Positions 13,721 to 53,431 are shown, counted from the first letter of the stretch. The stretch is 64,000 nucleotides of DNA from a virus (IMGVR_UViG_3300047476_002078:42802-106801), one strand, 5' to 3'. The notes: generated by a model not told the origin, from the letters alone. A program made the numbers and translations.

Positions 13721-13797
13721 TGGAGCGGGCGAAGGGGTTTGAACCCTCGACATCCAGATTGGAAATCTGGCACTCTACCAACTGAGCTACGCCCGCA
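13721..13797 (-). tRNA. tRNA-Gly (anticodon UCC)
   Basis: Reverse complement GCGGGCGTAGCTCAGTTGGTAGAG...GGTTCAAACCC...CGCCCGCTCCA; anticodon loop TTTCCAA. Confidence 0.8.
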
Positions 13798-15578: not shown

Positions 15579-15616
15579 TATATGGGTCAGAAATCTGACC
15601 CATATAATTTTTTTTC
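15579..15616. terminator. bidirectional rho-independent terminator
   Basis: TATATGGGTCAG-aaat-CTGACCCATATA then T9; between convergent genes. Confidence 0.65.
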
Positions 15617-16054
15617 TAGTTCAGCGATCTTTTTTTCTAAGTGTGACTTTTTCTTTATCTCTTTAGCTTTATCACCAAATGTAGGAGTGTTTACAGGTTT
15701 ACCTGTATTAGGTTTCTCCTTCTCTTTTTTCTTTTTATTCTTGGCAAGCTCCGCTCTTTCATCTTTGGATAGATCATGAGCTTTTTGTCTTGGCATACAT
15801 TTAAGAGGGTCTTTACCGTTATTAGTAATGTCTTTCCAGTCTGGGTCTTTGCTTATTCCACAAGGTCCGACTATATCCCCTGCCTCATAAGTCTTTTTTT
15901 CACCGTCATCTTTTGTAACAGTGTTTTTAACAGGAGTAATAGCTATCCAATCGCCGTAAGGAGCTTTGCCTTTAGCTTTTGATTTACCTTGACCGTGACC
16001 TTTAAACCAAGCATCCAAACCTCCGTGTTCGGAGCCTTTATCTCTATCAGCCAT
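15587..16054 (-). CDS. lysine-rich hypothetical protein
   Basis: 155 aa, K-rich C-terminal tail. Confidence 0.45.
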   Translation of the reverse strand: MADRDKGSEHGGLDAWFKGHGQGKSKAKGKAPYGDWIAITPVKNTVTKDDGEKKTYEAGDIVGPCGISKDPDWKDITNNGKDPLKCMPRQKAHDLSKDERAELAKNKKKKEKEKPNTGKPVNTPTFGDKAKEIKKKSHLEKKIAELEKKLYGSDF

Positions 16055-16056
16055 AT

Positions 16057-16866
16057 TTAATCTGCTTTTTTATAGGTAAGAATAGGTTTTCCGCCTTTAA
16101 CAATTGTGAATCCGCCTTCATCATCAAATTTAATTTCACTTGCTTTTGGAAATTCTAACCAAGAGTCGCCATTAGGAGTTTTGAAAGCAACTGCCTTGGA
16201 CTGAATTTTTGAAACTTCTCTTAATCCTAAATCTTTGTTCAATATGTGGTTAAAACAATTCCACTTAGAACCTATAGTTAAAGATTTCTTGAGGTCTGAT
16301 AGACTTGATTTTTTCTTCCACCCTCCACCAAGCTCTTTATAAGTTTTTGAAGCCCATCCATTTCCGTAGGCACTTGGAAAAATTTCAAAACCTTTACCAT
16401 CGTTAGGTCCATTAATTTCTTTTCCGTTATGTTTAATAGATTTAACTTCGCCTTTAGTAAGTTTCTGTACCTTTTCCCACAATGAAGGGTTTGTAGGCTC
16501 ATTGTCTCCTGCAAATTTCTCATTAGACTTTTTGCTTAAAACATCTGATACACTGAAACCTTTTTCCCACATCTTGCACGACCAATACTTAGCTTTCCAT
16601 TTTGGTCCGGGGTCAACATCGCATTGATGTCTTGATCTAAAGTTTTTTCTAGCATCGTCGTTATCACGACGGATTTCCATATTAGGGTCGCCAAAATTTA
16701 CTTTAACTACATTACCTTTATCGTTTTTAACATAAACACTAAATTTTTTAGGACCATCTGGAGTTCGGAAAGGCTTATTTAAAGTTACTTTTTTACCTTG
16801 ATATTCAGATTCACCTGCTATCTTCATTTCCATTTCAAAAATTTCAAACTCTATATCTTTTTTCAT
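16057..16866 (-). CDS. hypothetical protein
   Basis: 269 aa, W/G/K-rich. Confidence 0.45.
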   Translation of the reverse strand: MKKDIEFEIFEMEMKIAGESEYQGKKVTLNKPFRTPDGPKKFSVYVKNDKGNVVKVNFGDPNMEIRRDNDDARKNFRSRHQCDVDPGPKWKAKYWSCKMWEKGFSVSDVLSKKSNEKFAGDNEPTNPSLWEKVQKLTKGEVKSIKHNGKEINGPNDGKGFEIFPSAYGNGWASKTYKELGGGWKKKSSLSDLKKSLTIGSKWNCFNHILNKDLGLREVSKIQSKAVAFKTPNGDSWLEFPKASEIKFDDEGGFTIVKGGKPILTYKKAD

Positions 16867-16874
16867 TTTATCTC

Positions 16875-18299
16875 CTAACGGGAATTACCCCAACGTAAAA
16901 CTTTGGCAGCACTAATGAAATCTTGTAATGATGATTTGATTAAATTAGTGTCGTATTTTTTCCCTTTAGGGAACTTTATGTGAAATCTAAAACTTACTGC
17001 CCATGCTTTTGGAATATCATGGTGACTATCAGAAGACATTGTAACAATGTTGTCTTTTACTATAACTCTTGGAGTTCGATAAGTATCGGTTCCATCGTAA
17101 TAGTCTTCTTCTTGGTAGGTTAAGCTACCTGTAACAAATCCACCTGCGTTTTTAATTCCCTTAACAGCACTATCTATTCGAGATTTGAGTGAGCTTTCCT
17201 CAGATTTAGAAAAATAAAGTTTTGTTTTCCAAGAATCATCAATTTCTTCATATCCCTCGACAGTAATCAAATTTTCATTTTCTGATTCTTTTACTTTAAT
17301 ATGTTTTCCATCTTCCATTTTACGAAATTCATGCTGATTTTCTTCAGTTTTATTTTTCAGTTTCTTATATCCACCATCAACTAACATTCTTTGTAATTTT
17401 TCTACTTGAAACAAATTGTCTGTTTTTGATTGAAGTGTACTCTTATCTTCAAAAAATAATTCTTTTACATTGTCATGATTGCCTTCTCCTAAGCTGAATT
17501 GATAGTAAGGAAGACCTTCTGTAAAAGTCATAACAATAGATGCAAAAAGAGGTTTTTGTCCTTTAATGTTAATTACTGCCCCTGATTTAACATCAATGCT
17601 GTAGTTCATTGGATTTTGTCTTGCATAGTTTCTGTACTTAACATCAAAATCTAACCCTGAACCTCTTGTTATGTTTTCTTTTACTAATGATTGAAATTTT
17701 TTTACTAAATCAGATAAATCTTTAGGGGGTGTTTTTGATGAATTAAATTTGTCTTTTTGACTTTCAATATCTTTTTCAGCTTTTGTCTTATATTTTTCAG
17801 CTTCAGATTTTAATTTTGCTAGATCAGAATTATTTTCTTTCCCTTGGTTGAAAGCTCTAATTACATTCTGAATTATAAAAACGGCTTGTCGAAGTTTTAC
17901 TAACTTTTGAGATAAATCTTCGGCTCCTGCTTTTTTTGATGCTCTTATTGAAGATGAATACTCAATTGTAGCCACAAGATCATAAACATCATTTTCCTGT
18001 GGTTTTGAGGGACCAAAAGAAGCGTTAATGTAAAGTAAGAATCCTCCCTTATCTCCATGTGGAATTTCTACGTACCATTTTTTTCCATCTGGCATAGGTG
18101 AATGTTCACTATTAGGTATGTGGTAATAATCAGTTTTTTGTATGTTATAGTCTATTCCATTATCAGAAAGGTCTTTTAAAATACTTTGAACAGGCTTCCA
18201 CGTATCATCTCTAAAAAATCCCTTAGTCTTGGGATATATTATAGACTGTAAGTAAGACTTCGCTTTATGCTTTGATAACTCGTTAAACATGACGTTCAC
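16875..18299 (-). CDS. hypothetical protein
   Basis: 474 aa ORF. Confidence 0.45.
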   Translation of the reverse strand: MNVMFNELSKHKAKSYLQSIIYPKTKGFFRDDTWKPVQSILKDLSDNGIDYNIQKTDYYHIPNSEHSPMPDGKKWYVEIPHGDKGGFLLYINASFGPSKPQENDVYDLVATIEYSSSIRASKKAGAEDLSQKLVKLRQAVFIIQNVIRAFNQGKENNSDLAKLKSEAEKYKTKAEKDIESQKDKFNSSKTPPKDLSDLVKKFQSLVKENITRGSGLDFDVKYRNYARQNPMNYSIDVKSGAVINIKGQKPLFASIVMTFTEGLPYYQFSLGEGNHDNVKELFFEDKSTLQSKTDNLFQVEKLQRMLVDGGYKKLKNKTEENQHEFRKMEDGKHIKVKESENENLITVEGYEEIDDSWKTKLYFSKSEESSLKSRIDSAVKGIKNAGGFVTGSLTYQEEDYYDGTDTYRTPRVIVKDNIVTMSSDSHHDIPKAWAVSFRFHIKFPKGKKYDTNLIKSSLQDFISAAKVLRWGNSR

Positions 18300-27907: not shown

Positions 27908-27994
27908 TGGTGGCTCTGACCAGACTCGAACTGGTACGCCCTTACGGACACTCGATTTTAAATCGAGGTTGTCTACCGATTCCAACACAGAGCC
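27908..27994 (-). tRNA. tRNA-Leu (anticodon UAA)
   Basis: 87 nt with long variable arm, anticodon loop TTTAAAA, CCA encoded. Confidence 0.75.
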
Positions 27995-28018
27995 AATTCA
28001 CGACTATAATAAATATGA

Positions 28019-28095
28019 TGGTGGGACTGGCAGGACTTGAACCTGCAACCCTCCGGTTATGAGCCGGACGCTCTGACCAATTGAACTACAATCCC
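28019..28095 (-). tRNA. tRNA-Met (anticodon CAU; could be Ile2 or initiator)
   Basis: GGGATTGTAGTTCAATTGGTCAGAGC...CTCATAA...GGTTCAAGTCC...CAGTCCCACCA. Confidence 0.75.
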
Positions 28096-29369: not shown

Positions 29370-29444
29370 AGGGGTATCGACAAGTGGTAAGTCAGCAGAT
29401 TTTGATTCTGCCATACGCAGGTTCGACCCCTGCTACCCCTACCA
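29370..29444 (+). tRNA. tRNA-Gln (anticodon UUG)
   Basis: AGGGGTA acceptor pairs TACCCCT, anticodon stem GCAGA/TCTGC loop TTTTGAT, TTCGACC T-loop, CCA encoded. Confidence 0.75.
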
Positions 29445-43252: not shown

Positions 43253-43819
43253 ATGGATTCTAAAGTTCTTGCTACAACCGCACACAAACTATTAAAGGAA
43301 ATGGGTCACGAGCTACCGCTTGGTCATGTCTATGAACTCTTTTCTAAACTCTCAGGGCACAAGTCTTGGAATGTGGCAAAGACCAAAGACGGGTTTGAGC
43401 CAGTTCTTCGTCTGATTTCCCCTAAGTCTGTTGGTGAAGGTAACTATGAAGTTAAAGTTACTCTTGAAGAAGGTTCAATCGAGTTAAAAAAGTATTACAA
43501 GGTGCAGGCTCAGTCTGAAAAAGAAGCTGAAAGTATTGTTTCTAATTACATTAAGTACCGCATTTGTGACTTTAATAGTGAAGTTGAGATTGAGCAGTTC
43601 TTGTTTGAGAATGAAGGTGTGAGAATTCTTTCCGAATTAGAGAGTGAAGATGATTACCTTTATGAAAATTGGGAAGTCATTTGGAATGATTGTGTTCCTC
43701 AAGTTCAGGCAGGCTCAACTCTTTTTTTATTTTCAGAACATGATTTAGTCAAAAATCATCTCTTGGGAAAAATGTCGAAAGATGATTTTAAGAAGCAGTT
43801 GAAAGCAAAAATGCGTTAA
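43253..43819 (+). CDS. hypothetical protein
   Basis: Start trimmed to MDSKVLATT after RBS AAGGAAA; long 5' leader upstream. Confidence 0.45.
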   Translation: MDSKVLATTAHKLLKEMGHELPLGHVYELFSKLSGHKSWNVAKTKDGFEPVLRLISPKSVGEGNYEVKVTLEEGSIELKKYYKVQAQSEKEAESIVSNYIKYRICDFNSEVEIEQFLFENEGVRILSELESEDDYLYENWEVIWNDCVPQVQAGSTLFLFSEHDLVKNHLLGKMSKDDFKKQLKAKMR

Positions 43820-43827
43820 GATTTTAA

Positions 43828-44040
43828 ATGGAGGGGGATTTATTCTCCCTCCTCATTTTGTGGGTTTTTATGCAATTACAAGCTACGGGTGCAATTTTAA
43901 GTTATTCCATTGGATTTGTTCTTATGTACACTTCTTATTTTGGAGAAATTAAAAAACTCTCCGTTAATGAAGGTTTTATCGCTTCTGGATTTTTTATTTA
44001 TCTTGGATGCTATTTATTTTTTTCTTTGAAAAAATCTTAA
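43828..44040 (+). CDS. small membrane protein
   Basis: 70 aa, two TM helices. Confidence 0.4.
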   Translation: MEGDLFSLLILWVFMQLQATGAILSYSIGFVLMYTSYFGEIKKLSVNEGFIASGFFIYLGCYLFFSLKKS

Positions 44041-44101
44041 AGTCTCTCCTTTTCTTCATAACCTTGCTAATTTGCTTATAATAAGCAGAGTTGGGGTTAT
44101 A

Positions 44102-46249
44102 ATGAAAATCGACAAGAAAACACTCTCTGTTTTACAGAAACTAGCAATTACTTATCAAGAGTATAAGAAATTGCATCCTCGTACTAAGAAGACACCCGAT
44201 GACCCTCTTTTTACTTTGGCACAAGACCCAAACAAAAAAGAGTTCAAGGTTAAGCCTAAAGATATTAAAACAGTCATGCCTTCCAAGACACCTACCAAGA
44301 GTGTTCCGCAAAAGACAGACGACCCTGTTGAAAAGTTTCGCCCAAAGCTGGCTCCAAGTGCTTATCAAAAGCAGATGGATTCAAAAGAGCTTTTGAAAAA
44401 CGCTAAGAAAATGTCTTCTGACGATATGGCATGGCATCTTCTTAATTCTAAGATTGGTATGGGTTTTGAGAGTGGGGAACTTCGAGATCAAATGAAGAGT
44501 CATTTTGGTATTGCCAATATGTATGCCATGATGATTTTAAATCCAAATATATCAAAAGAAAGCCGAGACAATATTGCTTCATGGTTGCTCGATAAAGCCG
44601 GAGTATATTTTGTTTCCAGTAAATCTCTTAAAAGATTTCTCGAAGGTTGTGCGAATAAAGGCATTATCTCAAAAGAGATTTGGGAAGAAGAAGCCAATGG
44701 GGATAGTCAGCGTAAGGAAGAGGATGAGATTGCTCAAAATTACACCGCTGACCAACTTAAAAAACTTCCTGCTAAAAAGATTCAAGAGAATTGGAATGAG
44801 ATTTGTCAAAACGAAAATCTTCCGACTTCCATGATTCAAAAGATGTTGGGTGATAAGGATGTGAAGAAAGCCCTTGAGTTCATGAAAAAGGGCTACATAG
44901 AAGATACAGGAGCCATGTCTGGTAAGATTGGTGAGCGTAAAAATAAAATTGGTAAAGCGTTAAAAATTCTTTCTCATAAAAATGTTCCTTTTGAAGCGTT
45001 ACAAGAAGTGTTTGTACCTTCTCTTAAAAAACATCTTTCAACAAATAACTACAAGGCTTACGAAGTCGCTGAATACCTTGCGAGTCATCCTGACATAAAC
45101 AAGCCAGAGAACAGTGAGCTAAAAAAGTTAGTGCTTCAGGCTTATAAGACTCAGCTTAAATACTACAAAGACGACCCAGAATATGTGGAAGACCCTTACA
45201 AGTCTCAACGTAACTTTGATGAGCTAAAGCACCCTTCCGCTCCCCCTGCTAACTTAAAGCTGTCGAAGGAAGAGTTCTTAGCAATTTGGAAGATTAGAGA
45301 TGAAGGTCCATATAAGTCTCAAAATGAAAGATGGTTTGAGCATCCTGATATGCCAGATGAGATTATCAAAGAGAGTTTGACTAAAAAAGATAATAAAGTA
45401 AAAGACCCTCTTGATAAATATCTTAGTGACTATTCGGAAGTTCGGAAACTCGCTTTTCATCAAGCTCGAAAAAGAAATCTCTTATCAGATGACGACTTAA
45501 TCAAAACTGTAAAAGCTAATTTGAATCTGCATGGCAATGACAATGAACTTATGAAAAAGTTCGCTGAACAAGCTTACACTTATGGAAAAAGCACTAATGA
45601 TATACCTCGTTATATTTCTAAGGGAAGTGATGAGGAACGCAAAGCTGTAGAAGAACAGATGAAAAAGTCAGCTTTCCATGAAGAGTTTGATTTTGAAGTC
45701 TCCGCAGTTTACAACATTGATAAAGAGCCACACAAAGATTTCGCAAAAACTTCTAAGAAACTTGGAAATGTAATGGAAGGTGTTTACCATGGTACAAGCT
45801 ATGCAAACGCCGCTGGGATTCTTTCAGATGGGGTTAGAGTTGATACCGAAGAAAGAACAGGTTCTATGTTCGGTAGGGGTTTTTATCTAGCTTCTGCTTC
45901 TTCTAAAGCTGCCCAATATGCTGGAGAAAAATTTAGTCAGCATGATGGAGATGGGGTAGTCTTTATGCTGAATGTCGCTCTTGGTAAATCCAAAGAAATG
46001 AAATATGGCAGACCCGAAGGAGATAATCTAAAATATCGTATGTTGAGTCCGGAAGAAAAACAAATGATTGAGGATTACAAAAAGAAAACAGGCAAAGACC
46101 TTGATGATAAGTGGCACTACGACCATGACTCTGTAACTGCTAAGGCAGGGCAGGCTTTAGATTATGATGAGTTTGTGGTGAAAGACCCTTCTCAGCTTCA
46201 GATTAAAAAGATTGTTATTGTGAAGAAGACACCAAAGGCAAAAGTATGA
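44102..46249 (+). CDS. PARP-like ADP-ribosyltransferase (H-Y-E class) with shared N-terminal leader module
   Basis: C-terminal VYHGTS ... GRGFYLASASS ... YDEFVVKDP (His-Tyr-Glu triad); N-terminal YQEYKKLHPRTKKTPDDPLF. Confidence 0.65.
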   Translation: MKIDKKTLSVLQKLAITYQEYKKLHPRTKKTPDDPLFTLAQDPNKKEFKVKPKDIKTVMPSKTPTKSVPQKTDDPVEKFRPKLAPSAYQKQMDSKELLKNAKKMSSDDMAWHLLNSKIGMGFESGELRDQMKSHFGIANMYAMMILNPNISKESRDNIASWLLDKAGVYFVSSKSLKRFLEGCANKGIISKEIWEEEANGDSQRKEEDEIAQNYTADQLKKLPAKKIQENWNEICQNENLPTSMIQKMLGDKDVKKALEFMKKGYIEDTGAMSGKIGERKNKIGKALKILSHKNVPFEALQEVFVPSLKKHLSTNNYKAYEVAEYLASHPDINKPENSELKKLVLQAYKTQLKYYKDDPEYVEDPYKSQRNFDELKHPSAPPANLKLSKEEFLAIWKIRDEGPYKSQNERWFEHPDMPDEIIKESLTKKDNKVKDPLDKYLSDYSEVRKLAFHQARKRNLLSDDDLIKTVKANLNLHGNDNELMKKFAEQAYTYGKSTNDIPRYISKGSDEERKAVEEQMKKSAFHEEFDFEVSAVYNIDKEPHKDFAKTSKKLGNVMEGVYHGTSYANAAGILSDGVRVDTEERTGSMFGRGFYLASASSKAAQYAGEKFSQHDGDGVVFMLNVALGKSKEMKYGRPEGDNLKYRMLSPEEKQMIEDYKKKTGKDLDDKWHYDHDSVTAKAGQALDYDEFVVKDPSQLQIKKIVIVKKTPKAKV

Positions 46250-46467
46250 ACCAAGCCGAAATAGATCGCCAAACTATTGAATTTATTGTCAATCAGACAC
46301 CCTCTGAAGAAGAGGCGAGGCAACGTCTGGATAAGTTACAAGTTTCTTTGAAAAAAGATTATTACGAATTCTTAGTGGAAGAAGCGATTAAGAATAAATT
46401 CCTTATAATTAATAAAACTAAGGAAATTCAAGCGAAGATATTAAATTTAGAATCAAAGTTAAAATAG
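46246..46467 (+). CDS. hypothetical protein
   Basis: 73 aa. Confidence 0.35.
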   Translation: MNQAEIDRQTIEFIVNQTPSEEEARQRLDKLQVSLKKDYYEFLVEEAIKNKFLIINKTKEIQAKILNLESKLK

Positions 46468-46474
46468 GGATTGT

Positions 46475-47104
46475 ATGAAAAAAATAGTTTCAAGCCTTCA
46501 TAAAATTGCGTCAGATTTAGAAAAAACTGCTTTAGATTACAATGAGTATAAAAAGCTACACCCGAACACAAAAAAGACACCTTCTGACCCGATGTTTAAA
46601 GAAAATAAACCTCAACAGGAGAGTCAGGCTCCCAAACAACAAGCTCCAAATCAACAACCAAAATCTGAGCCTAAACAAGAATCTGCTCCTAAAGTAAAGA
46701 AAACTGTTAGTGATTTTACGGATGCTGAATTAGATGAAATTGGTTTCATGCCGTCTTATAGAAAAAGTTTAAGTGATAAAGAAGTTTTGGAAGAATATAA
46801 CGCTAAAAATAAAGTTGATGAGCTTGTAAAATCTAAAAAATTGAACCTTTCTGATTATCCTGATACTGCCTTTACCTCTATTCTGCAAGATTACAAAGAA
46901 AAACAAAATAAAGGAAAATTAAGTGATGATGATTTTGAACCAGAAAACTTTTATACCGCAGTTAGAAAACATTTAAGCGATAAAGAAGTTACTCCTAAAA
47001 CTGTGAGGGAAGCGATTCGTGTTTATCACCCAGATGCAAAACTCACAAATGACCAAATAAGTTCTGTAATGAATATGTATGAAAAAAAACAAGGTTGGGG
47101 CTAA
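46475..47104 (+). CDS. hypothetical protein with shared N-terminal leader module
   Basis: N-terminal LDYNEYKKLHPNTKKTPSDPMF then Q/P/K low-complexity linker. Confidence 0.5.
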   Translation: MKKIVSSLHKIASDLEKTALDYNEYKKLHPNTKKTPSDPMFKENKPQQESQAPKQQAPNQQPKSEPKQESAPKVKKTVSDFTDAELDEIGFMPSYRKSLSDKEVLEEYNAKNKVDELVKSKKLNLSDYPDTAFTSILQDYKEKQNKGKLSDDDFEPENFYTAVRKHLSDKEVTPKTVREAIRVYHPDAKLTNDQISSVMNMYEKKQGWG

Positions 47105-47498
47105 TATGAAATTAAAAGAACAGATACAAAATTTAGAGAAAAAAATCGCTTCTAAAGCGGATGCTGCTGATATTTTTGATGAGTTTGTTAAAAACATCAT
47201 GGAGCCTCATAGAAAGAAATTTATCGAAGATCAAAACTCACCTTGGAACAAAAGCAGAGAAACTGAAGCTTCTTTAAAAGAAAAAGCAAAGTTGATTGAA
47301 GAAAGAATGAAAGAAGGTAGAGGTTTCCGTGAGGTTTGTGATGATAAAGATATTTATTTAGGAAGCGTTGATTCTAACTTCATTTATGATAAATATGTTC
47401 TAAAATCTTGGAAAGGCTCTTTTGAAGATTGGAAAGATAAAGAGATGCGTTTAGACGCTAGAAGATTTTTTGTAGATTTAAAATTAATTAAGTGGTGA
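47079..47498 (+). CDS. hypothetical protein
   Basis: 139 aa. Confidence 0.4.
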   Translation: MKKNKVGANMKLKEQIQNLEKKIASKADAADIFDEFVKNIMEPHRKKFIEDQNSPWNKSRETEASLKEKAKLIEERMKEGRGFREVCDDKDIYLGSVDSNFIYDKYVLKSWKGSFEDWKDKEMRLDARRFFVDLKLIKW

Positions 47499-48610
47499 TA
47501 GATATGAAAGATTTAATTCCGGGCGGAAAGTCAGATAAAAAACCAGACTCAGCTTTTGATTCCAAGCAACTTCAAAAAGGTATCAAGGTTGAGCGAGAGC
47601 ACACAAAAAACAAACAGCTTGCTAAAGAGATTGCAAAAGATCATTTATCTGAATTTTCTGATTACTATGATAGATTAGAAAAGATGGAAAAGTCAGCACA
47701 TTCAAAAGTTCTCTTAAAAAAAATAAAAGAGCTTGCACACAAAATTTCTGCTTCTAACGAGCATCCTATAACTAAAGGCTTAGTGCTGTCCTTTTTTGCT
47801 ACTAACATCGAGATTGGTGTTATTGACGAAGCTACGAAAAAACCTATCACTATTGCGAAAATTAATAAATCGTTTAAGAAAGATAGTCAAAGTGAAGTTA
47901 TCGAACTAGCTAAAGAGATATTTAATAATCTCGATGCTTCTGGTTACACTAAAGGCATGGACTTCAAGGCTCAACCTTACTACCGAGAATTAAATCAGGC
48001 TTATCTTAATTTCAAGAAAAGATTGTCGGAACTTTCAGAGAACCAATTAGAAAAGATGGGACTCGGTAAGCATCCATATAAATATTTGGGAGCTATGGAG
48101 TCACCTTCAAAAGAACTTCAAGAGCAAAATCCAGAAGCCTATAACAACGCACTAAGAAATTTCCCAAGATTTGATGCAGGTGGAATTGGAAGCTGTGCTA
48201 GATGTTACAACGCAATTACTATTCACCATATTATTAAATCTAGTGATGGAAAGGTATTTCCTTTAGGTAGTGAGTGCGTTTGGACATTGAATGATAATAA
48301 AATCGAGTCTGAAGTTAAAAAAGAAAAGACAAAGATTGAGAAAAGTAAAAGAGACGTAAGAAATAAGGCAAAATTATCTGATCTGGAAGACATTATAAAC
48401 AATCCTGAGTTAATCAAGAAAATGAAAAGTATGTCATACAAAATGCCAGCCGCTTTCAGTAAATGGGATGAGGGCAAAAGGCAATGGTACTTAAATACAA
48501 TTGTTGGAGATGGGACTTACTACGATTATGTTTTACACATGATTAAAATTTCTGGCACTTCAGGAAAACAAAGAATACTAAAAGAAGTTAAAAAAGATTT
48601 GGGGTTATAA
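47492..48610 (+). CDS. hypothetical protein
   Basis: 372 aa; N-terminal GGKSDKKPDSAFDSKQLQKGIKVEREHT motif. Confidence 0.45.
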   Translation: MVIDMKDLIPGGKSDKKPDSAFDSKQLQKGIKVEREHTKNKQLAKEIAKDHLSEFSDYYDRLEKMEKSAHSKVLLKKIKELAHKISASNEHPITKGLVLSFFATNIEIGVIDEATKKPITIAKINKSFKKDSQSEVIELAKEIFNNLDASGYTKGMDFKAQPYYRELNQAYLNFKKRLSELSENQLEKMGLGKHPYKYLGAMESPSKELQEQNPEAYNNALRNFPRFDAGGIGSCARCYNAITIHHIIKSSDGKVFPLGSECVWTLNDNKIESEVKKEKTKIEKSKRDVRNKAKLSDLEDIINNPELIKKMKSMSYKMPAAFSKWDEGKRQWYLNTIVGDGTYYDYVLHMIKISGTSGKQRILKEVKKDLGL

Positions 48611-48611
48611 T

Positions 48612-48914
48612 ATGAGCATTGTTAAAAAATTAAATAAAGTTGCAGAGTTTCTTGAAAAATCATCCGCAAGTGAGTTCGACAAATGGCTCGATACTTTCCT
48701 TGAAGAGAAAGGCATTGACCTTGAAGATGATTTCACAGTTCAAGGTGCTTTTTATGGTGATAACTACATGACTTATGAAGTTGTTGTAGAGCACATTAAA
48801 ATCGCTCCGAAGCACGAACAAAAGAAAATTAAAGACATGCTCGTAAAAATTGATTTTAAGAATGGGGATGTGAAACATTTTCTCCGTCATTTAGGACAGG
48901 CTTTAGCAAAATGA
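48612..48914 (+). CDS. hypothetical protein
   Basis: 100 aa. Confidence 0.4.
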   Translation: MSIVKKLNKVAEFLEKSSASEFDKWLDTFLEEKGIDLEDDFTVQGAFYGDNYMTYEVVVEHIKIAPKHEQKKIKDMLVKIDFKNGDVKHFLRHLGQALAK

Positions 48915-49102
48915 AAAATATTCTTTCTAAACTTAATGAATTAGCTACAAAAATAGAGAAAACATCTTCAAAACGTATTCCTGTTTATCTGAGTCAAGAA
49001 GAGTTGAAACTTATTAAGCAAGGGCTTGATAAAGTTCAAGGGTCAGGAGTCTTAAAACTTATCGAAAGAGTCGAAGCAGAGTTAGACACTTTCGAGGAAT
49101 AG
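48911..49102 (+). CDS. hypothetical protein
   Basis: 63 aa. Confidence 0.3.
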   Translation: MKNILSKLNELATKIEKTSSKRIPVYLSQEELKLIKQGLDKVQGSGVLKLIERVEAELDTFEE

Positions 49103-49163
49103 CTCACCGCAAAAATTGATATTGACTAAGTGTGTTCAATAGCATATTATCCGTAAAATTTTT

Positions 49164-49424
49164 ATGGAGATTAGCTTGAGCAACTGTCCTTCCTGTAAAA
49201 AGCCCTACAATGGTTTTAAAGACGACGAGTCCATGGCTGAGTATAAACAGTCAGGTCTTTGTCAAAACTGCCAAGACGAGTTTTTTGGTGCTCCTACGCT
49301 ACCAAAAGGAAATCCTACAGGTATATGCCGTGATTGCGGTAGGATGACATATCAAGAAGAAGAATTTTGTTCTCAGTCTTGCGAAACAGCTTACATGAAT
49401 TATTTAAACGAAGGTTTGAAATGA
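49164..49424 (+). CDS. zinc-ribbon protein
   Basis: CPSC ... CQNC ... CRDC ... C motifs. Confidence 0.4.
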   Translation: MEISLSNCPSCKKPYNGFKDDESMAEYKQSGLCQNCQDEFFGAPTLPKGNPTGICRDCGRMTYQEEEFCSQSCETAYMNYLNEGLK

Positions 49425-49645
49425 ATTTACGAGAACTAGAAAGAAAACTTGGTCTTCCACTTCGTTACTTGGACAGCAAAGAAAATGTAGAACTTCCAGA
49501 AACTCAAGCATTATTAAAAATGATTGATGCTATGCCTTGGCTCATAGAGGTAGCAGAAAGTGGTTTTAATCCTGAAGTTTCCCAACTGATACTACAAAGA
49601 GAAGCAATCAACATAAAGATAGAGGAAGCTAGGAATGGCAAATAA
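49367..49645 (+). CDS. hypothetical protein
   Basis: 92 aa. Confidence 0.35.
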   Translation: MFSVLRNSLHELFKRRFEMNLRELERKLGLPLRYLDSKENVELPETQALLKMIDAMPWLIEVAESGFNPEVSQLILQREAINIKIEEARNGK

Positions 49646-49862
49646 AGCAGAATTTAGAGTGATGTATCAAAAATCCGTCGGCTTTTGCGGTGAGGCTAGA
49701 ATGGAGTGTGTAAAAAGTTTCCTAACTTTTGAAGAAGCCTCTAAATTTGCCAAAGACTATGAGTTACCTAATCACATGGACGAAATATACATAATGCAAA
49801 TTTACACAAAGGATAAAAATAATGAGGACGATGGCAAATGTTCTACTGGAAAAGAGTCTTAA
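49635..49862 (+). CDS. hypothetical protein
   Basis: 75 aa. Confidence 0.35.
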   Translation: MANKAEFRVMYQKSVGFCGEARMECVKSFLTFEEASKFAKDYELPNHMDEIYIMQIYTKDKNNEDDGKCSTGKES

Positions 49863-50091
49863 CGCTCTTTTGAAAAAACTTACTCCTCAAGACTTAGCTA
49901 AATATGAGGCTTGGAAGTTAGACCAATCTCACGATCTTGAATTGGATGATAAAATGCTTGAGCTTGAAATAGATAACCATGTCGTAGCAATTGAAGAAGT
50001 TAAAGAAATGGAAAAAGATACAGACCAGTATTATCAACTTCAAGCACATATCAAAAAAATACAGAAATTAGCTAATCTTTGGGACACCTAA
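49822..50091 (+). CDS. hypothetical protein
   Basis: 89 aa. Confidence 0.35.
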   Translation: MRTMANVLLEKSLNALLKKLTPQDLAKYEAWKLDQSHDLELDDKMLELEIDNHVVAIEEVKEMEKDTDQYYQLQAHIKKIQKLANLWDT

Positions 50092-50253
50092 TCAACAAGG
50101 CTCGGATGAGGAAAACCGAGCCTAAAAAACCTACTCCCATACCTATTCTTGGGAAACCGCTCATAACTGCTTGAATGTTTAATAAACTTAGGGAACAGCC
50201 TATTAAAGTAAAATGAATCTTTTTATCTAGTTTTGGGCACATAACTCATTATA

Positions 50254-50270
50254 GTGGAATCGGTATAGCC
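50254..50270 (+). promoter_or_regulatory. conserved 17-bp element GTGGAATCGGTATAGCC (copy 3)
   Basis: 24 bp upstream of ATG 50294, RBS AGGAGG between. Confidence 0.45.
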
Positions 50271-50293
50271 TATGTAACAAATAGGAGGATTCC

Positions 50294-50740
50294 ATGAGCA
50301 TTAATATTGGCGACATTGTAGAACTCAACGGAAAAGAATATAAAATTGTCGGAACGATCAAGCGTTCCTACCTTCTTGAAAGGGAAGGTAAGCAATATAA
50401 AGCGACTGCCGATAAAATCAAAAAGATTCAACAAATCACAGGTCAAAGAGAAAGCACTCCCACGACTTCTTACCTAGAAAGAAGAGTGGCTTACTTGAAA
50501 ATTTTCAAAATAGACGCAAAAATACCGACCAATGCAGAAGAGTGTATGCCTTTCTTTGAAAGATTAGTTGGTGAACTATCTCCAGAAAATCTATCTTGTG
50601 ACGGAGAGGCTTCACGCTCACAAGTTCAGGCGAAGCTCAGAGAAATCAGAGGAACTTGGAAAGAACTTGAAACGATTGCAGGACGAAGATATTCAGAACA
50701 AGAAATTGAAGAACGTATGATGGGAGGACTCAATGGATAA
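50294..50740 (+). CDS. hypothetical protein
   Basis: 148 aa. Confidence 0.45.
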   Translation: MSINIGDIVELNGKEYKIVGTIKRSYLLEREGKQYKATADKIKKIQQITGQRESTPTTSYLERRVAYLKIFKIDAKIPTNAEECMPFFERLVGELSPENLSCDGEASRSQVQAKLREIRGTWKELETIAGRRYSEQEIEERMMGGLNG

Positions 50741-51002
50741 TTTTGAATACAAAGGTTATACTTACTTAAAAGAACTTGATGTAGAACCTGATAACATCAA
50801 AATCTTTCACATGGCTGTAAAAGAAGGTAAAGAAGTACATATAGATTTCAGCCCATACACTGAAATGGATTTTGAAACCTTTCAAATGTTGGTTGATCTT
50901 AATTTTCCAGAAAGGATTGGAGTAAAAACTCCTCATGGGACTTTTTTCTCTCCTTGGAATAAAGATTCTTTGATGAAATTTTGGCTTGAGAGAAAAGTAT
51001 GA
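50733..51002 (+). CDS. hypothetical protein
   Basis: 89 aa. Confidence 0.4.
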   Translation: MDNFEYKGYTYLKELDVEPDNIKIFHMAVKEGKEVHIDFSPYTEMDFETFQMLVDLNFPERIGVKTPHGTFFSPWNKDSLMKFWLERKV

Positions 51003-51400
51003 ATATAACTCCAGAATTAGTAAAAACTCTTGAACCTAATCAGATATTTGTTTTTGGCTCAAACGAAGCTGGCAGGCATGGAGCAGGAGCCGCCAAAAAT
51101 GCGGTTAAGTGGGGAGCTATTTATGGGGTAGGTGAGGGATTAAAAGGTCAAACTTATGCTATACCGACAAAAGATAAAAACATTGAGACGCTAAATCTTG
51201 AAGATATAAATGATTACGTTCTTAATTTTTATAACTTTGCCAAGATAAACCCTGATCTTGATTTTTTAGTTACAGAAATAGGGTGCGGTTTAGCAGGTCT
51301 TACTCCAGAACAAATAGCACCTATGTTTAAAGACACTTCAAAACTGCCGAATGTTTACCTACCTTATAGGTTTTGGAATGTTTTGGTGGAAATGGTATAG
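50999..51400 (+). CDS. Rossmann-like nucleotide-binding protein (possible SLOG/LOG-like)
   Basis: IFVFGSNEAGRHGAGAAKNA glycine-rich loop after beta-strand, second G-rich loop EIGCGLAG. Confidence 0.35.
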   Translation: MNITPELVKTLEPNQIFVFGSNEAGRHGAGAAKNAVKWGAIYGVGEGLKGQTYAIPTKDKNIETLNLEDINDYVLNFYNFAKINPDLDFLVTEIGCGLAGLTPEQIAPMFKDTSKLPNVYLPYRFWNVLVEMV

Positions 51401-51402
51401 CC
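51386..51402 (+). promoter_or_regulatory. conserved 17-bp element variant GTGGAAATGGTATAGCC (copy 4)
   Basis: 15/17 match, upstream of 51443/51455 start. Confidence 0.35.
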
Positions 51403-51442
51403 AGCCAAATCTTAATTTAAGATAAGATTTGGCTAAATATAA

Positions 51443-51817
51443 ATGGAGGGATTTATGAAAGCTATTCTGATTGATGTTGAAAAACGTGAAGTAAAAATAG
51501 TTGATGTGGAAAAAGGAATTGATGCGATTTATGCACAGATTAAATGCGACTGTTTCACAGTTGTAACATTAGAAAACGAAGATGCTATTTTTGTAGATGA
51601 TGAAGGTTTACTTAAATTGGATGAAAATTCAAAATTCTTTTTCATTGAAGGTTATCATCAACCTTTAGCAGGAAACGGTTTAATTCTCGGAACCGATGAA
51701 GAAGGTGAAAGCGTTGATGTGAAAAGTGATTTAGAGGATATAAAGAACAAGGTGCGTTTTCTTAACATTCAAGAAATTCACGCTACAAACCCAGAATGGC
51801 TATCTCAATTCTTATAA
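51443..51817 (+). CDS. hypothetical protein
   Basis: 124 aa; true start may be internal MKAIL. Confidence 0.4.
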   Translation: MEGFMKAILIDVEKREVKIVDVEKGIDAIYAQIKCDCFTVVTLENEDAIFVDDEGLLKLDENSKFFFIEGYHQPLAGNGLILGTDEEGESVDVKSDLEDIKNKVRFLNIQEIHATNPEWLSQFL

Positions 51818-51826
51818 GAAGGTTTT

Positions 51827-52066
51827 ATGAATAAAATTCAGAGTTACCATTTTGGTTATGTTTTAGAAAAAGTTAATTATGTTGAAGAAGTTTTAGAAAT
51901 TATTGAAACGCCTTATGCGGCTTTAAACATCTTCGGTCAGATTTTAAATCAAAAAAGAGTACACAGAGTAAACTTTTGCAGATTTACTCCGGGCGAGGCT
52001 ATTTCAATGCCTTACAAAAATAAAAAGGATTGCGAAGATTTTCAAAAATTATATGAAAATTCGTGA
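51827..52066 (+). CDS. hypothetical protein
   Basis: 79 aa. Confidence 0.35.
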   Translation: MNKIQSYHFGYVLEKVNYVEEVLEIIETPYAALNIFGQILNQKRVHRVNFCRFTPGEAISMPYKNKKDCEDFQKLYENS

Positions 52067-52268
52067 TAAAGTAGGTTATATGGAAAATAAATTCAGAATG
52101 ATTGTAATGTGTGATGGAGAAAACGGTTCAATTGTTCCGTGCGAAGATGCGAGCTTGTTTGAAACGCTTGAAGATGCTAAAGAGTGGGCTGAAGCGATTA
52201 TTCAATCAGGCAACGCTCATTACATAAACATATATCAAAACGATGAAATGGTTTGCAGGGTTTTATGA
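52053..52268 (+). CDS. hypothetical protein
   Basis: 71 aa. Confidence 0.35.
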   Translation: MKIRDKVGYMENKFRMIVMCDGENGSIVPCEDASLFETLEDAKEWAEAIIQSGNAHYINIYQNDEMVCRVL

Positions 52269-52498
52269 AGACTTTTGATTTCTCAGATTTAGAAAAAGCT
52301 GTATTAGCTGATATTAATCAGAATCATGAGCATATTCCAGATTACTATAGTCTGTGGGCAGATGAGTTTAAAGTTGATCGGAAACTTGTTAAAGAAATTG
52401 CTTGGTTACATTTTTATGACGTGACTAAAGGTGAAAATATAAACCAAATTAAAAACAGTATTCGTTCTACTCTTATACAACGAGGCTATAAAGTATAA
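52253..52498 (+). CDS. hypothetical protein
   Basis: 81 aa. Confidence 0.35.
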   Translation: MQGFMKTFDFSDLEKAVLADINQNHEHIPDYYSLWADEFKVDRKLVKEIAWLHFYDVTKGENINQIKNSIRSTLIQRGYKV

Positions 52499-52575
52499 TG
52501 GCGACCGAGGAGGGACTCGAACCCCCAACCGCTGCCTTAGAAAGACAATGCTCTATCCGGTTGAGCTACTCGGTC
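52499..52575 (-). tRNA. tRNA-Arg (anticodon UCU)
   Basis: GACCGAGTAGCTCAACCGGATAGAGC...anticodon loop TTTCTAA...GGTTCGAGTCC...CTCGGTCGCCA. Confidence 0.7.
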
Positions 52576-52609
52576 AAATTCCAATTATTCTGTGTTAAAT
52601 TTTAAAAGT

Positions 52610-53431
52610 CTATTTAAAATTTAATTGAACCTGTGAATCTGTCCCATCTTCATGAGCAAAAGTAAAATAATGCTGTTGATGCCATTTTGATTTGATTGCA
52701 TTTGACAGTCTCATTTTAACTTTCCCTGCTTCATCAAAATCAGTAAAAATGTTTTTAAGATGGCTTCCTGCTACGTGCCCTGTGCCCTTCATCTCATCTC
52801 CTGCATATTGTTCCCAGAGAGGCTTTAAATGATTATGCCCTGCGGTAGAGTGGATAACGGAATGTTGTCCATATTTTTTACCAATTGCTTCCAAGTCTTT
52901 TGGAGAAACTTTATTTGTGTGGTGAACCATGAAAACATTTTCATCATTCCCCATGAAGTGCCCTGTACCTCTGTGAAAAACAACGCCCATTTTCTGAAGT
53001 TCTTGCATGAGTTGTTGTGTACGTTTTTTATTTTCTTCGGAATCTGTTTTTTGACCATGTGGGTTTTCTGCGGTTAGTACCGTAAATGAACCGTGGTTTA
53101 AATGATGCTTGAGAAATTTTTTATCTATTGGGGCTGCTCCGGAAATAAAAGGTCGTGCGTTTTCGGAAGTCTTTACTTGCGTTCTTGTTCTCAATTCTTT
53201 GAACTTATCAAAGTCTAATTTTGTATCGGGATGATTCTGCTTAAACATATCGTAAGCAGTATTAATGCTCTCGTCTGATTTAGTCTGTGGTTTATTTTGA
53301 GAAGGTTGAGCAAAAAGAGGGTCATTTGGTCTTTTTTTAGTCAAAGGGTGTAACTTCTTATAGTCTTCATAAGTTATTTTGGCTTTTTTAAGCTTATTTT
53401 CAAGTTCAGAGATTAAGTCAGATACTTTCAT
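52610..53431 (-). CDS. His-rich hypothetical protein with shared N-terminal leader module
   Basis: N-terminal ITYEDYKKLHPLTKKRPNDPLF then Q/P/K linker; many His/Gly in C-terminal region. Confidence 0.5.
   Translation of the reverse strand: MKVSDLISELENKLKKAKITYEDYKKLHPLTKKRPNDPLFAQPSQNKPQTKSDESINTAYDMFKQNHPDTKLDFDKFKELRTRTQVKTSENARPFISGAAPIDKKFLKHHLNHGSFTVLTAENPHGQKTDSEENKKRTQQLMQELQKMGVVFHRGTGHFMGNDENVFMVHHTNKVSPKDLEAIGKKYGQHSVIHSTAGHNHLKPLWEQYAGDEMKGTGHVAGSHLKNIFTDFDEAGKVKMRLSNAIKSKWHQQHYFTFAHEDGTDSQVQLNFK

Follow-up and report, generated by a model that had tools for sequence, protein, structure and literature searches.

Related loading systems

The capsid-targeting sequence (CTS) of bacteriophage T4 is about 10 residues long and is cut off by the prohead protease. 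The T4 internal proteins are diverse defence proteins with only such a sequence in common (PMC3012670; PMC5694885), and T4 Alt was also described as packaged and injected (Iyer et al., 2017; PMC5512222). N-terminal propeptides are cleaved by the prohead protease, and in SPN3US the proteins gp53 and gp54, with identical 15-residue N-termini, are processed by this protease (PMC5694885). Phage polyvalent proteins, whose domain set includes LPD1, ADP-ribosyltransferases (ARTs) and metallopeptidases, were argued to be packaged in the head and delivered with the DNA (Iyer et al., 2017; PMC5512222). Giant phages such as the phiKZ-like jumbo phages, including SPN3US, package many proteins. Encapsulins load interchangeable cargo into an HK97-fold shell by means of a short conserved peptide and a flexible Pro/Ala-rich linker; their tags mostly sit at the C-terminus, have about 10 residues and are encoded beside the shell gene in cellular genomes.

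Here, we describe an N-terminal module that opens three genes in a viral sequence of 64,000 nucleotides (IMGVR_UViG_3300047476_002078:42802-106801), referred to as the window throughout this paper. Like the T4 CTS (IPI-III, Alt), the module is a common N-terminal element on unrelated phage proteins, one of them an ADP-ribosyltransferase (three of three window copies and 74 of 88 family matches). The T4 cargos are diverse, rapidly exchanged host-takeover and anti-defence proteins (PMC3012670; PMC5694885; PMC5512222). Unlike the T4 sequence, the module has about 40 residues, is predicted to fold, and precedes a long spacer with no recognisable cleavage site. With polyvalent proteins the tagged set shares a vocabulary, namely LPD1 with HExxH and ADP-ribosyltransferases, but polyvalent proteins carry 2-15 effector domains per giant polypeptide, whereas the tagged effectors are separate, mostly small proteins. 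At most one recognisable effector domain was found in each of the three window proteins and the 10 individually scanned members, the family-wide domain scan giving family counts only. The common denominator of the tagged set is the N-terminal tag, which is not among the Pfam domains of any member. Encapsulin peptides resemble the module in combining a conserved peptide, a flexible linker and interchangeable cargo, but the module is N-terminal, about 40 residues long, carried on phage contigs, and was not found in the cellular genomes scanned. The SPN3US proteins gp53 and gp54 are whole-length paralogues (pfam12699), whereas the tagged proteins share the leader only and are otherwise unrelated.

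Three tagged proteins in the window

Exactly three genes of the window open with the module, at 44102-46249 (+), 46475-47104 (+) and 52610-53431 (-). Their common opening is an amphipathic helix (helix 1) followed by Y-x-x-YKKLHPxTKKxPxDP(L/M)F. These genes, their neighbours and the module copies are as follows.

44055..44082, plus strand, sigma-70-like promoter match TTCATA-16-TATAAT, before the PARP operon
44102..46249, plus strand, PARP-like protein, 715 aa, module at aa 1-37
44102..44212, plus strand, module copy 1, MKIDKKTLSVLQKLAITYQEYKKLHPRTKKTPDDPLF, HMM 61.6 bits
46246..46467, plus strand, 73-aa gene overlapping the PARP stop codon
46475..47104, plus strand, p209, 209 aa, module at aa 1-41, then Q/P/K linker and C-terminal domain
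46475..46597, plus strand, module copy 2, MKKIVSSLHKIASDLEKTALDYNEYKKLHPNTKKTPSDPMF, HMM 65.6 bits, AlphaFold model
47106..47498, plus strand, neighbour with helix 1 only, beginning MKLKEQIQNLEKKIAS
48612..48914, plus strand, neighbour with helix 1 only, 19-aa extension MSIVKKLNKVAEFLEKSSA before a phrog_6004 domain
48911..49102, plus strand, neighbour with helix 1 only, beginning MKNILSKLNELATKIEKTS
52610..53431, minus strand, His-rich DUF3293 protein, 273 aa, module at aa 1-40, short linker
53312..53431, minus strand, module copy 3, MKVSDLISELENKLKKAKITYEDYKKLHPLTKKRPNDPLF, found by motif scan and HMM
53183..53257, minus strand, degenerate or ancestral variant motif AYDMFKQNHPDTKLDFDKFKELRTR, aa 59-83

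When the whole window was scanned in six frames, the core YKKLHPxTKKxPxDP(L/M)F matched exactly three times, at 44162-44212 (+), 46547-46597 (+) and 53362-53312 (-), each time at the N-terminus of an ORF; the chance expectation for its 13 fixed residues in this translation is 1.6e-12. An HMM built from 80 module sequences recovered the same three copies and nothing else significant. The original prediction of one N-terminal module on three proteins was thus confirmed by both scans, and the search for further copies in the window returned only the three that it had named. Its description of unrelated C-terminal domains behind one leader was also correct: a PARP domain, the domain of p209, which has no family in Pfam, PHROG or NCBIfam, and DUF3293. 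The C-terminal domain of p209 is common to P0087 and P0065.

Over the 20 core codons, the copies are only 67-78% identical in DNA in pairwise comparison, and different codons are used at 6-10 of the 14-16 identical residues. The many synonymous differences among the three copies indicate that conservation acts at the protein level and that no recent DNA repeat accounts for the copies. Recent DNA duplication, which the original prediction had named as one finding that would overturn it, is ruled out as their origin by this identity and the differing codons, and conservation of the protein extends well beyond this genome. The module is under protein-level selection.

Parts and predicted fold of the module

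The module is best explained as a portable element of about 40 residues, predicted to be folded and consisting of two parts. The first is a short leader at the N-terminus, in most cases an amphipathic helix (e.g., MKKILAEIxxLExKLA), for which the alternative leader MNLKSLKLGQS... can substitute while the second part is retained. This second part (motif 2) is a tightly conserved knob, [YF]xxYKKxHPxTKKxPxDP(M/L)F, in which Y, P, K and D are invariant and H and F nearly so; its net charge is only +2. The AlphaFold model of p209 shows a compact unit with helices at residues 2-17 and 22-28, a return segment or strand and an L20-F41 bridge, with pLDDT of 86-87 across residues 21-40.

Over the 40 residues that follow the module, Pro is enriched 2.1-fold and Gln 1.6-fold, and Leu, Ile and Val are depleted. 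Family linkers are rich in Lys (16% K) and Pro, and AKP- or KAAP-like repeats occur in several members, e.g., P0018, P0065 and P0078. The low-complexity linker described in the original prediction was found, K/P/Q-rich, in the PARP-like protein and p209, with net charges of +7 and +3; the stretch in the DUF3293 protein is shorter and neutral. AlphaFold modelled the linker as coil, its pLDDT being about 60 for p209 and under 50 for the DUF3293 protein. After F37, the member sequences show by eye no conserved motif of the kind that a protease would cleave.

Distribution and cargo

A profile of the module matched 87 cluster representatives at E<=1e-3 among 1.84 billion proteins. Of their 88 domain matches, 74 begin within 20 residues of the N-terminus, and the module is internal in about 8 of the 87 proteins. 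The 81 C-terminal regions fell into at least 54 clusters that are mutually unrelated by BLAST. As originally proposed, the leader is supported as an N-terminal module that is reused in front of unrelated domains, to which a flexible linker connects it; its conservation extends well beyond this genome.

No match to the module was found in Pfam, PHROGs, NCBIfam or PDB sequences; lacking any Pfam, PHROG or NCBIfam model, it merits its own family entry. Two module variants searched by tblastn against 50,697 phage genomes gave no real match at E<=10, so that neither this collection nor PHROGs revealed similarity to known phage proteins, and no cultured phage with the module was found in the collection. 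In 185,579 genomes of bacteria and archaea, neither of two pattern scans returned a copy. Across the collections searched, the module appears only in viral or metagenomic sequence.

Cargo domains recognised by Pfam included PARP (four), ADPrib_exo_Tox (one), topoisomerase IB (two), GNAT, DUF3293 and DnaJ. LPD1, a polyvalent-protein domain, was found in three members (best E=4.4e-15), all three showing an HExxH motif by eye. For a candidate ParB-like domain, which was not confirmed, the scan gave GmrSD_N at E=0.029, and inspection by eye gave only a DGHHR motif. Small proteins without obvious toxicity make up most of the cargos. Many of the small cargo proteins are His-rich.

The DUF3293 protein gives a case of gain or loss on one cargo. 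Its DUF3293 domain (PF11697, aa 119-192) scored 47.3 bits, above the curated cutoff of 25. The motif-2 part of module copy 3, together with the linker, is a 34-residue insertion that is lacking in the orthologues P0088-P0090. A second, degenerate module copy, AYDMFKQNHPDTKLDFDKF, lies at aa 59-77, and the variant motif to which it belongs is kept in all DUF3293 orthologues; it represents their putative ancestral N-terminal region. The DUF3293 domain tentatively resembles the T3 SAMase fold. The best Foldseek match in the PDB was 7ock_K (prob 0.99, E=5.4e-3, TM 0.31/0.50), from a query with a mean pLDDT of only 52.5; the entry is titled 'MAT in complex with SAMH', and we take this chain to belong to the T3 SAMase-MetK complex. 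The Pfam score for SAMase (T3) was 21.5 bits, below the cutoff of 28.

Genomic contexts

The module was found on metagenomic contigs of 56-345 kb with phage genes and is best explained as belonging to large or jumbo phages that form an uncultured clade. Several tagged genes occur per genome, often in translationally coupled operons: in L021, a tagged topoisomerase IB gene comes directly before a tagged gene for a 445-aa protein and a third copy is present, and in L019 a tagged PARP gene occurs with a tagged gene for a 104-aa protein. In L011/L013, the tagged gene is the end of a baseplate/tail operon; the PARP homologue of L018 precedes genes for an amidase, a minor-tail-like fn3 protein and a 1343-aa protein, all on its own strand. 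In total, same-strand tail, baseplate, lysis or weakly virion-like genes adjoin a tagged gene in three of about eight independent contexts; most of the others (L012, L017, L019, L020/L021) have non-structural or unknown genes. The three tagged window genes are surrounded by small non-structural genes, and no structural, protease or scaffold gene was found in the window.

Possible functions of the module

The module may be a capsid-targeting signal, for example one that docks cargo to the prohead interior for packaging and delivery; this plausible reading, which the original prediction put forward, is the most likely of those considered, but we rate it tentatively, as something short of probable. 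It fits the architecture, the cargo repertoire and some tail/lysis neighbourhoods. The module would attach its cargo to a component inside the prohead during assembly, in a manner akin to the T4 CTS on Alt and the internal proteins, with the spacer rich in proline, lysine and glutamine tying it to any of dozens of unrelated cargos, and host-takeover or anti-defence enzymes would be packaged and then delivered along with the DNA. From the window, the delivered cargos would be the PARP-like ADP-ribosyltransferase with its H-Y-E triad, p209 and the DUF3293 protein, which may be SAM-lyase-like. We infer that tagged proteins may reach the capsid and be injected, with or without cleavage of the tag. 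The support is circumstantial: the cargo list overlaps with packaged or injected phage domains (ART/PARP as in T4 Alt; HExxH with LPD1), and the late or structural neighbourhoods in L011/L013 and L018 point the same way, as do the T4 precedent, the modularity, linker, fold, distribution and copy number, and the gain or loss on the DUF3293 cargo. Against capsid targeting, the window genes and most other contexts are non-structural, the DnaJ-domain and GNAT cargos are atypical of injected proteins, about 40 folded residues are far more than the T4 sequence has, about 8 of the 87 proteins have the module internally, no conserved cleavage motif was seen behind it, the terminator and promoter match before the PARP operon would fit early transcription, and there is no sequence relation to the phage collection.

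The non-structural contexts would fit another reading, in which the module is an intracellular docking tag. Its partner would be a single conserved hub during infection, such as a host protein or a phage-made replication factory, compartment, clamp or chaperone, and many different phage enzymes would be concentrated at one place without packaging. The clamp-binding tails common to T4 replication and late-transcription proteins are a parallel. We consider this main alternative rather unlikely. The architecture would be the same for any targeting peptide, the PARP operon has a sigma-70-like promoter match, and topoisomerase IB and PARP, which act on DNA or chromatin-like substrates, would gain from co-localisation, as would the DnaJ-domain protein. 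The hub could be the 'GGLDAWF' protein, which is clade-wide, 80-92% conserved and adjoins tagged genes in three loci, but in L023 and L025 its gene does not adjoin tagged genes, and in the window it is 28 kb distant. Neither a known bacterial hub-binding motif (clamp QL[SD]LF, SSB tip; by eye) nor a PDB sequence match was found, and docking leaves the overlap of the cargo set with packaged polyvalent-protein domains unexplained. The potential toxicity of many cargo enzymes (PARP, topoisomerase IB, HExxH protein) would agree with an oligomerisation or regulatory pro-domain without address function, whose amphipathic helix bundles the products of one operon or which keeps enzymes inactive until its removal. 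Helix-1-like N- or C-termini also occur on most PARP-operon products (47106, 48612, 48911 and the 73-aa C-terminus) and on neighbours of tagged genes in L010, L011, L017 and L019. Such a role is nevertheless improbable: helix 1 alone scores weakly and has a composition ordinary for an AT-rich genome, it is replaceable while motif 2 stays, and most cargos lack obvious toxicity. We consider it very improbable that the module tethers enzymes to DNA or the nucleoid through the TKKxP segment, which resembles SPKK-type minor-groove motifs, and a Lys/Pro/Ala-rich spacer, in the manner of histone H1 tails. The Lys- and Pro-rich repeats, the positive linkers of the PARP-like protein and p209, and the several DNA-acting cargos agree with it, but the DUF3293 linker is neutral, the invariant Y, P, K and D do not form a basic cluster, and a 20-residue knob that has a predicted fold and is conserved so exactly points to binding of a particular protein rather than to electrostatic contact with DNA.

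It is also possible, if somewhat doubtful, that the module is part of an undescribed portable address system, which would load dozens of unrelated effectors into the virion or another phage-built compartment for delivery. This system would comprise a short leader (helix or MNLKSLKLGQS type), the 20-residue YKKxHPxTKKxPxDPMF knob and the spacer, and its effectors would include PARP, topoisomerase IB, HExxH/LPD1, GNAT, SAM-lyase-like and many small His-rich proteins. Such a system would amount to a new cargo-loading code, parallel in mechanism to the T4 CTS and encapsulin peptides and unrelated to both. If the module is an address label, sequence alone reveals which effectors an uncultured jumbo-phage clade delivers or co-localises: more than 50 cargo families, most without known function, each of which becomes a candidate for anti-defence or host takeover. 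The strategy known from T4, with diverse effectors under one targeting signal, would then have arisen independently with a different, larger folded module, and a compact transferable tag would be available for loading foreign proteins into large capsids. If the destination is intracellular, PARP, topoisomerase IB, protease-like, acetyltransferase and SAM-lyase-like enzymes would have a single docking knob in common, which would indicate a new hub of phage infection.

The PARP operon

The PARP-like protein has a K/P-rich linker to about aa 100, a helical region and the catalytic domain (Pfam PARP, PF00644; aa 512-707, E=4.3e-23), whose 82.3 bits exceed the curated cutoff of 26.7; motif inspection placed the H-Y-E triad at H563, Y595 and E690. 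The module is kept in its homologues P0006, P0011, P0015 and P0040. A strong terminator-like hairpin at 43830-43852 lies upstream of the promoter match at 44055..44082, which is a consensus match only, of a kind not enriched over shuffles; together they would fit early transcription of the operon. Downstream, the gene at 47106..47498 likely has its true start at the internal ATG at 47106, and in the 48612..48914 product positions 2-85 of the 88 in the phrog_6004 profile align at aa 20-100. The 73-aa protein ends in the helix-1-like KEIQAKILNLESKLK, and homologues of its gene come after PARP homologues in L018 and L019. In P0055, a sequence like the N-terminus of the 73-aa protein stands before the module, as seen by eye.

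An N-terminal module on three unrelated proteins

The PARP-like protein, p209 and the His-rich DUF3293 protein of the window were originally predicted to begin with one common module. This module is a tag of about 40 residues and consists of a leader helix (helix 1) and a knob, YKKxHPxTKKxPxDP(M/L)F. When the 64 kb were scanned for the motif in six frames and compared with the list of ORFs, the prediction was confirmed: YKKLHPxTKKxPxDP(L/M)F occurs exactly three times, 17-21 residues past the start codon in each of the ORFs 44102-46249 (+, 715 aa), 46475-47104 (+, 209 aa) and 52610-53431 (-, 273 aa). Alignment of the N-termini showed M1, K2, L11, K13, Y18, Y21-P26, T28-K30, P32, D34, P35 and F37 to be common to all three; the chance expectation for 13 fixed residues in the six-frame translation is 1.6e-12 matches. 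Recent DNA duplication is ruled out by the 20 core codons, in which pairwise DNA identity is 67-78% and 6-10 of the 14-16 identical amino acids per pair have different codons. Selection thus acts on the peptide, and the three copies are old.

When 5.8 billion proteins were searched through a word index, just three small matches to the module were returned. A five-sequence profile, run with HMMER over the full set of 1.84 billion cluster representatives, detected 87 proteins at E<=1e-3 (15 at E<=1e-10). The family consensus is MKxILAEIxxLExKLA-x-[DT][YF]xxYKK[EL]HP[KG]TKKTPSDP[ML]F, with Y21, P26, K30 and D34 invariant and H25 and F37 nearly so. The predicted modular, reused leader was borne out by the domain hits, 74 of 88 of which start within 20 residues of the N-terminus, and by the C-terminal regions (n=81), which after removal of the module formed 54 clusters mutually unrelated by BLAST. 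Several hits outside the first 20 residues reflect apparent mis-called starts or an insertion between leader helix and knob. The low-complexity linker, likewise predicted, shows in the composition of the 40 residues past the module: enrichment is 2.1-fold for Pro, 1.6-fold for Gln and 1.3-fold for Lys, and Leu, Ile and Val are depleted.

The cargos, i.e., the regions beyond module and linker, belong mostly to small proteins, many of which look histidine-rich by eye. Those recognized by Pfam are PARP (4), LPD1 (3; all with an HExxH motif by eye), topoisomerase I/IB (2), GNAT (2-3), ADPrib_exo_Tox, DUF3293 and DnaJ. DGHHR motifs had suggested a ParB-like nuclease as a further cargo; neither Pfam nor PHROGs confirmed it, and it was dropped.

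AlphaFold2, with a 59-sequence alignment as input, predicted the module as a helix (2-17), a second helix (22-28) and an extended return segment in which Phe41 pairs with Leu20; pLDDT is 86-87 at residues 21-40 and about 60 in the linker beyond, which is coil. Identity with a known domain was rejected, as no match was found in Pfam (even at E<=10), PHROGs, NCBIfam or PDB sequences, and the best PDB alignments (PCNA and ASH2, and myoglobin for the variant motif, the degenerate second motif of the DUF3293 protein) were at chance level (E 0.2-0.6). The module appears to be an undescribed sequence family, without sequence kinship to anything in the libraries searched.

Exchange of leaders, and gain and loss of the knob

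Three DUF3293 orthologues (P0088-P0090), 65-72% identical to the window protein with its C-terminal region as query, lack 34 residues of canonical knob and linker, although both the leader helix and the variant motif (QYSDYKRNHPNSQMDYNHFK) are retained. In P0043, P0047, P0051, P0056 and P0069, the helix is replaced by an alternative leader, MNLKSLKLGQS... On an IMG/VR contig of 231,559 bp (L012, 4331-6132), four consecutive genes open with M/V-N-[LIM]-K-[ST]-L-K-L-G-Q-S; the YKKLHP knob is present in the first only, and one other is weakly GNAT-like. In the window, PARP-operon products starting at 47106 (MKLKEQIQNLEKKIAS), 48612 (MSIVKKLNKVAEFLEKSS) and 48911 (MKNILSKLNELATKIEKTS) have a similar N-terminal helix without the knob. 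Two genes of this region are as follows:

47492-48610, +, 372-aa protein with an N-terminal DUF5661 domain (aa 24-67), a helix-1-like segment inside the chain (LLKKIKELAHKISAS) and a C-terminal part rich in Cys and His, GSCARCYNAITIHH...GSECV
48612-48914, +, phrog_6004 protein with added helix, matching from residue 20 (profile positions 2-85 of 88)

Because the phrog_6004 match starts at residue 20, the first 19 residues (MSIVKKLNKVAEFLEKSSA) represent an added N-terminal helix, and it resembles the leader helix of p209. As an independent tag, helix 1 was rejected on statistical grounds: a helix-only HMM was weak, giving bona fide members just 2.6-4.8 bits. Helix-1-like termini are therefore suggestive only, and the knob is the solid signature.

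Cargos encoded in the window

The PARP-like protein contains a PARP catalytic domain (aa 512-707, E=4.3e-23); in four homologues, its central stretch of 400 residues is conserved. Since the H563/Y595/E690 triad is intact, it is plausibly an active ADP-ribosyltransferase. The gene behind it is:

46246-46467, +, 73-aa gene overlapping the PARP stop codon, with kin behind PARP homologues

The gene and these kin (8579-8809 in L018 and 12103-12354 in L019, two metagenomic loci) encode proteins of 73-83 aa with the motif TIxFIVNTSP..EAR, and in the tagged protein P0055 a sequence like the N-terminus of the 73-aa protein lies ahead of the module. The 73-aa protein is a possible inhibitor or chaperone of the PARP enzyme.

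The DUF3293 domain (aa 119-192) matched Pfam S-AdoMet_lyase with 21.5 bits, under the cutoff. The top Foldseek PDB match of the low-confidence protein model (pLDDT 52.5) was 7ock_K, interpreted here as the T3 SAMase bound to MetK. These weak signals converge and give only a hint of a T3 SAMase-like (SAM lyase) fold, which would suit an anti-restriction function. For p209, homologues were found (P0087 and P0065), and Pfam, PHROGs and NCBIfam gave no family match.

A 565-bp contig of a related strain (L003, ENA ERZ28593999), 96.5% identical to the window, aligns to 43747-44254 and 46194-46254. Of the PARP gene it retains only the leader (aa 1-51) and the final 15 residues, the rest being absent through an in-frame deletion of about 1.94 kb; where the flanks join, they share 8 nt. 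Either the strain is a naturally PARP-less variant, or the assembly is at fault.

The carrier genome and distribution of the module

The window has a G+C content of about 33% and encodes an SNF2 helicase, an ATP-dependent ligase, a 5'-3' exonuclease, a polymerase-exonuclease-like protein, three DNA methyltransferases and many small ORFs; no structural genes were recognized among the ORFs scanned. It also contains tRNA genes:

52499-52575 (-), 13721-13796, 27908-28095, 29370-29444, five tRNA genes: Arg-TCT, Gly-TCC, Leu-TAA, Met-CAT, Gln-TTG

Directly past the 3' end of the DUF3293 gene, and in the same orientation, lies the tRNA-Arg gene. The nearest relatives of the helicase, at 46-47% identity, are in a 309-kb phage and a 485-kb uncultured phage, and the phage collection yielded no DNA near-identical to the window, which is thus a fragment of an uncultured large phage. 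Short contigs near-identical to it (L005, L007 and L008) came from two JGI metagenomes.

Two tblastn searches of 50,697 phage genomes with module variants gave no match. A prophage or cellular origin was rejected, as two pattern scans of 185,579 bacterial and archaeal genomes found no module copy. Based on degenerate DNA patterns, only a handful of module-bearing contigs (26, 45, 56, 57 and 231 kb) were located in IMG/VR, and member look-ups placed the module on contigs of 87 kb (L019) and of 60 and 345 kb (L020 and JGI 3300059473). One candidate locus, L014, was discarded as a chance match in a high-GC protein. Genomes carry several tagged genes, and stop and start codons often overlap. In L019, PARP is followed by genes for an 83-aa protein, a metallophosphatase, a 104-aa protein with the tag and a 98-aa protein with the helix only; L021 has a tagged topoisomerase IB, next to it a 445-aa protein that is also tagged, and a third tagged gene at a distance of 7 kb; and one 45-kb contig has two tagged paralogues.

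On a 6.3-kb IMG/VR contig (L004), a 308-aa protein (2504-3430) ends in half a knob (...FQEYKKLHPNTK / ...AFQEYKKLHPNTKLNLQGFIKMSEE; 20.5 bits), and its N-terminal motif GVWRTIGGRRVFI also occurs ahead of the module in P0032. Downstream of its gene come an ORF that looks HNH-like by eye, a gene for a head scaffold and one for a major capsid protein. As the protein has half a motif only and no useful PHROG, this locus was set aside as evidence.

Possible function of the module

A conserved N-terminal knob, a flexible spacer, interchangeable cargo, several copies per genome and an occurrence only in viral or metagenomic sequence together give the module the anatomy of a targeting peptide. In phage T4, a capsid-targeting sequence is all that Alt, an ADP-ribosyltransferase, has in common with the diverse internal proteins that serve in defence (PMC3012670; PMC5694885), a precedent for the module docking its cargo in the prohead for packaging and delivery. 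Iyer et al. argued that polyvalent proteins are packaged and delivered with DNA, and the cargo list overlaps their domain vocabulary (PMC5512222). Gene order at some loci also favors virion loading: the tagged gene of L011/L013 is the last of a baseplate/tail operon, and the PARP homologue of L018 precedes genes for an amidase, a minor-tail-like protein and a 1343-aa protein, all in its own orientation. However, the majority of other contexts are non-structural, as is that of the window's tagged genes, which lie behind a hairpin and a sigma-70-like match; member sequences show no conserved cleavage motif past the module by eye; and the module is unlike the short T4 sequence. These points are adverse or neutral. 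Weighing both sides together, we consider virion loading the single most likely explanation, though a tentative one that falls somewhat short of an even chance.

Docking of the cargo onto an intracellular hub is the main rival and only somewhat less likely; a role in oligomerization or as a pro-domain is improbable. Tethering to DNA is more doubtful still, because the net charge of the knob amounts to just +2 and the residues fixed throughout are Y, P, K and D (H and F nearly so).

That unrelated phage effectors can share an N-terminal address is already known from T4, and the parallel holds on condition that the module functions as an address. The T4 capsid-targeting sequence is short, and the module is about four times that length. 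In contrast to it, the module is predicted to fold, is bipartite and has exchangeable leaders; its cargo set, in uncultured large phages, is unusually broad.

Putative promoter region and other genes

Upstream of the PARP operon, a sigma-70-like promoter match was found together with a terminator-like hairpin:

43830-43852, +, strong terminator-like hairpin, GGAGGGGGA...TCTCCCTCC plus T-run, just past the 43109-43819 gene

Overlapping with the hairpin is the 5' end of a hydrophobic ORF of 70 aa (43828-44040, +), which may not be a real gene. Sigma-70-like sites are no commoner than in shuffled controls; the promoter match therefore gives no expression timing, and that use of the scan was dropped.

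A further conserved protein is encoded elsewhere in the window:

15587-16054, -, GGLDAWF protein, 155 aa (MADRDKGSEHGGLDAWFKGHGQGKSKAKGKAPYGDW...)

It is 80-92% identical to its nearest homologues and at least 58% to others, far above the other proteins compared; the homologues are on contigs of up to 345 kb, and no match was found in Pfam, NCBIfam or the phage collection. Its gene directly adjoins tagged genes in three loci (L017, L020 and L021) and is not adjacent to them in L023, L025 and the window, so that an obligate partnership was rejected. The window copy has a C-terminal helix-1-like KKIAELEKKL. By eye, the 269-aa protein (16057-16866, -) has EPTNPSLWEKVQ...FPSAYxNGWASKxYKxLGGGW in common with the C-terminal part of the tagged P0053, and the 474-aa protein (16875-18299, -) has MPDGKxW...DKGG...ASFGPS in common with the tagged P0035. 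Judged from these motifs, tagged and untagged proteins appear to exchange the domains seen in the 269-aa and 474-aa proteins.
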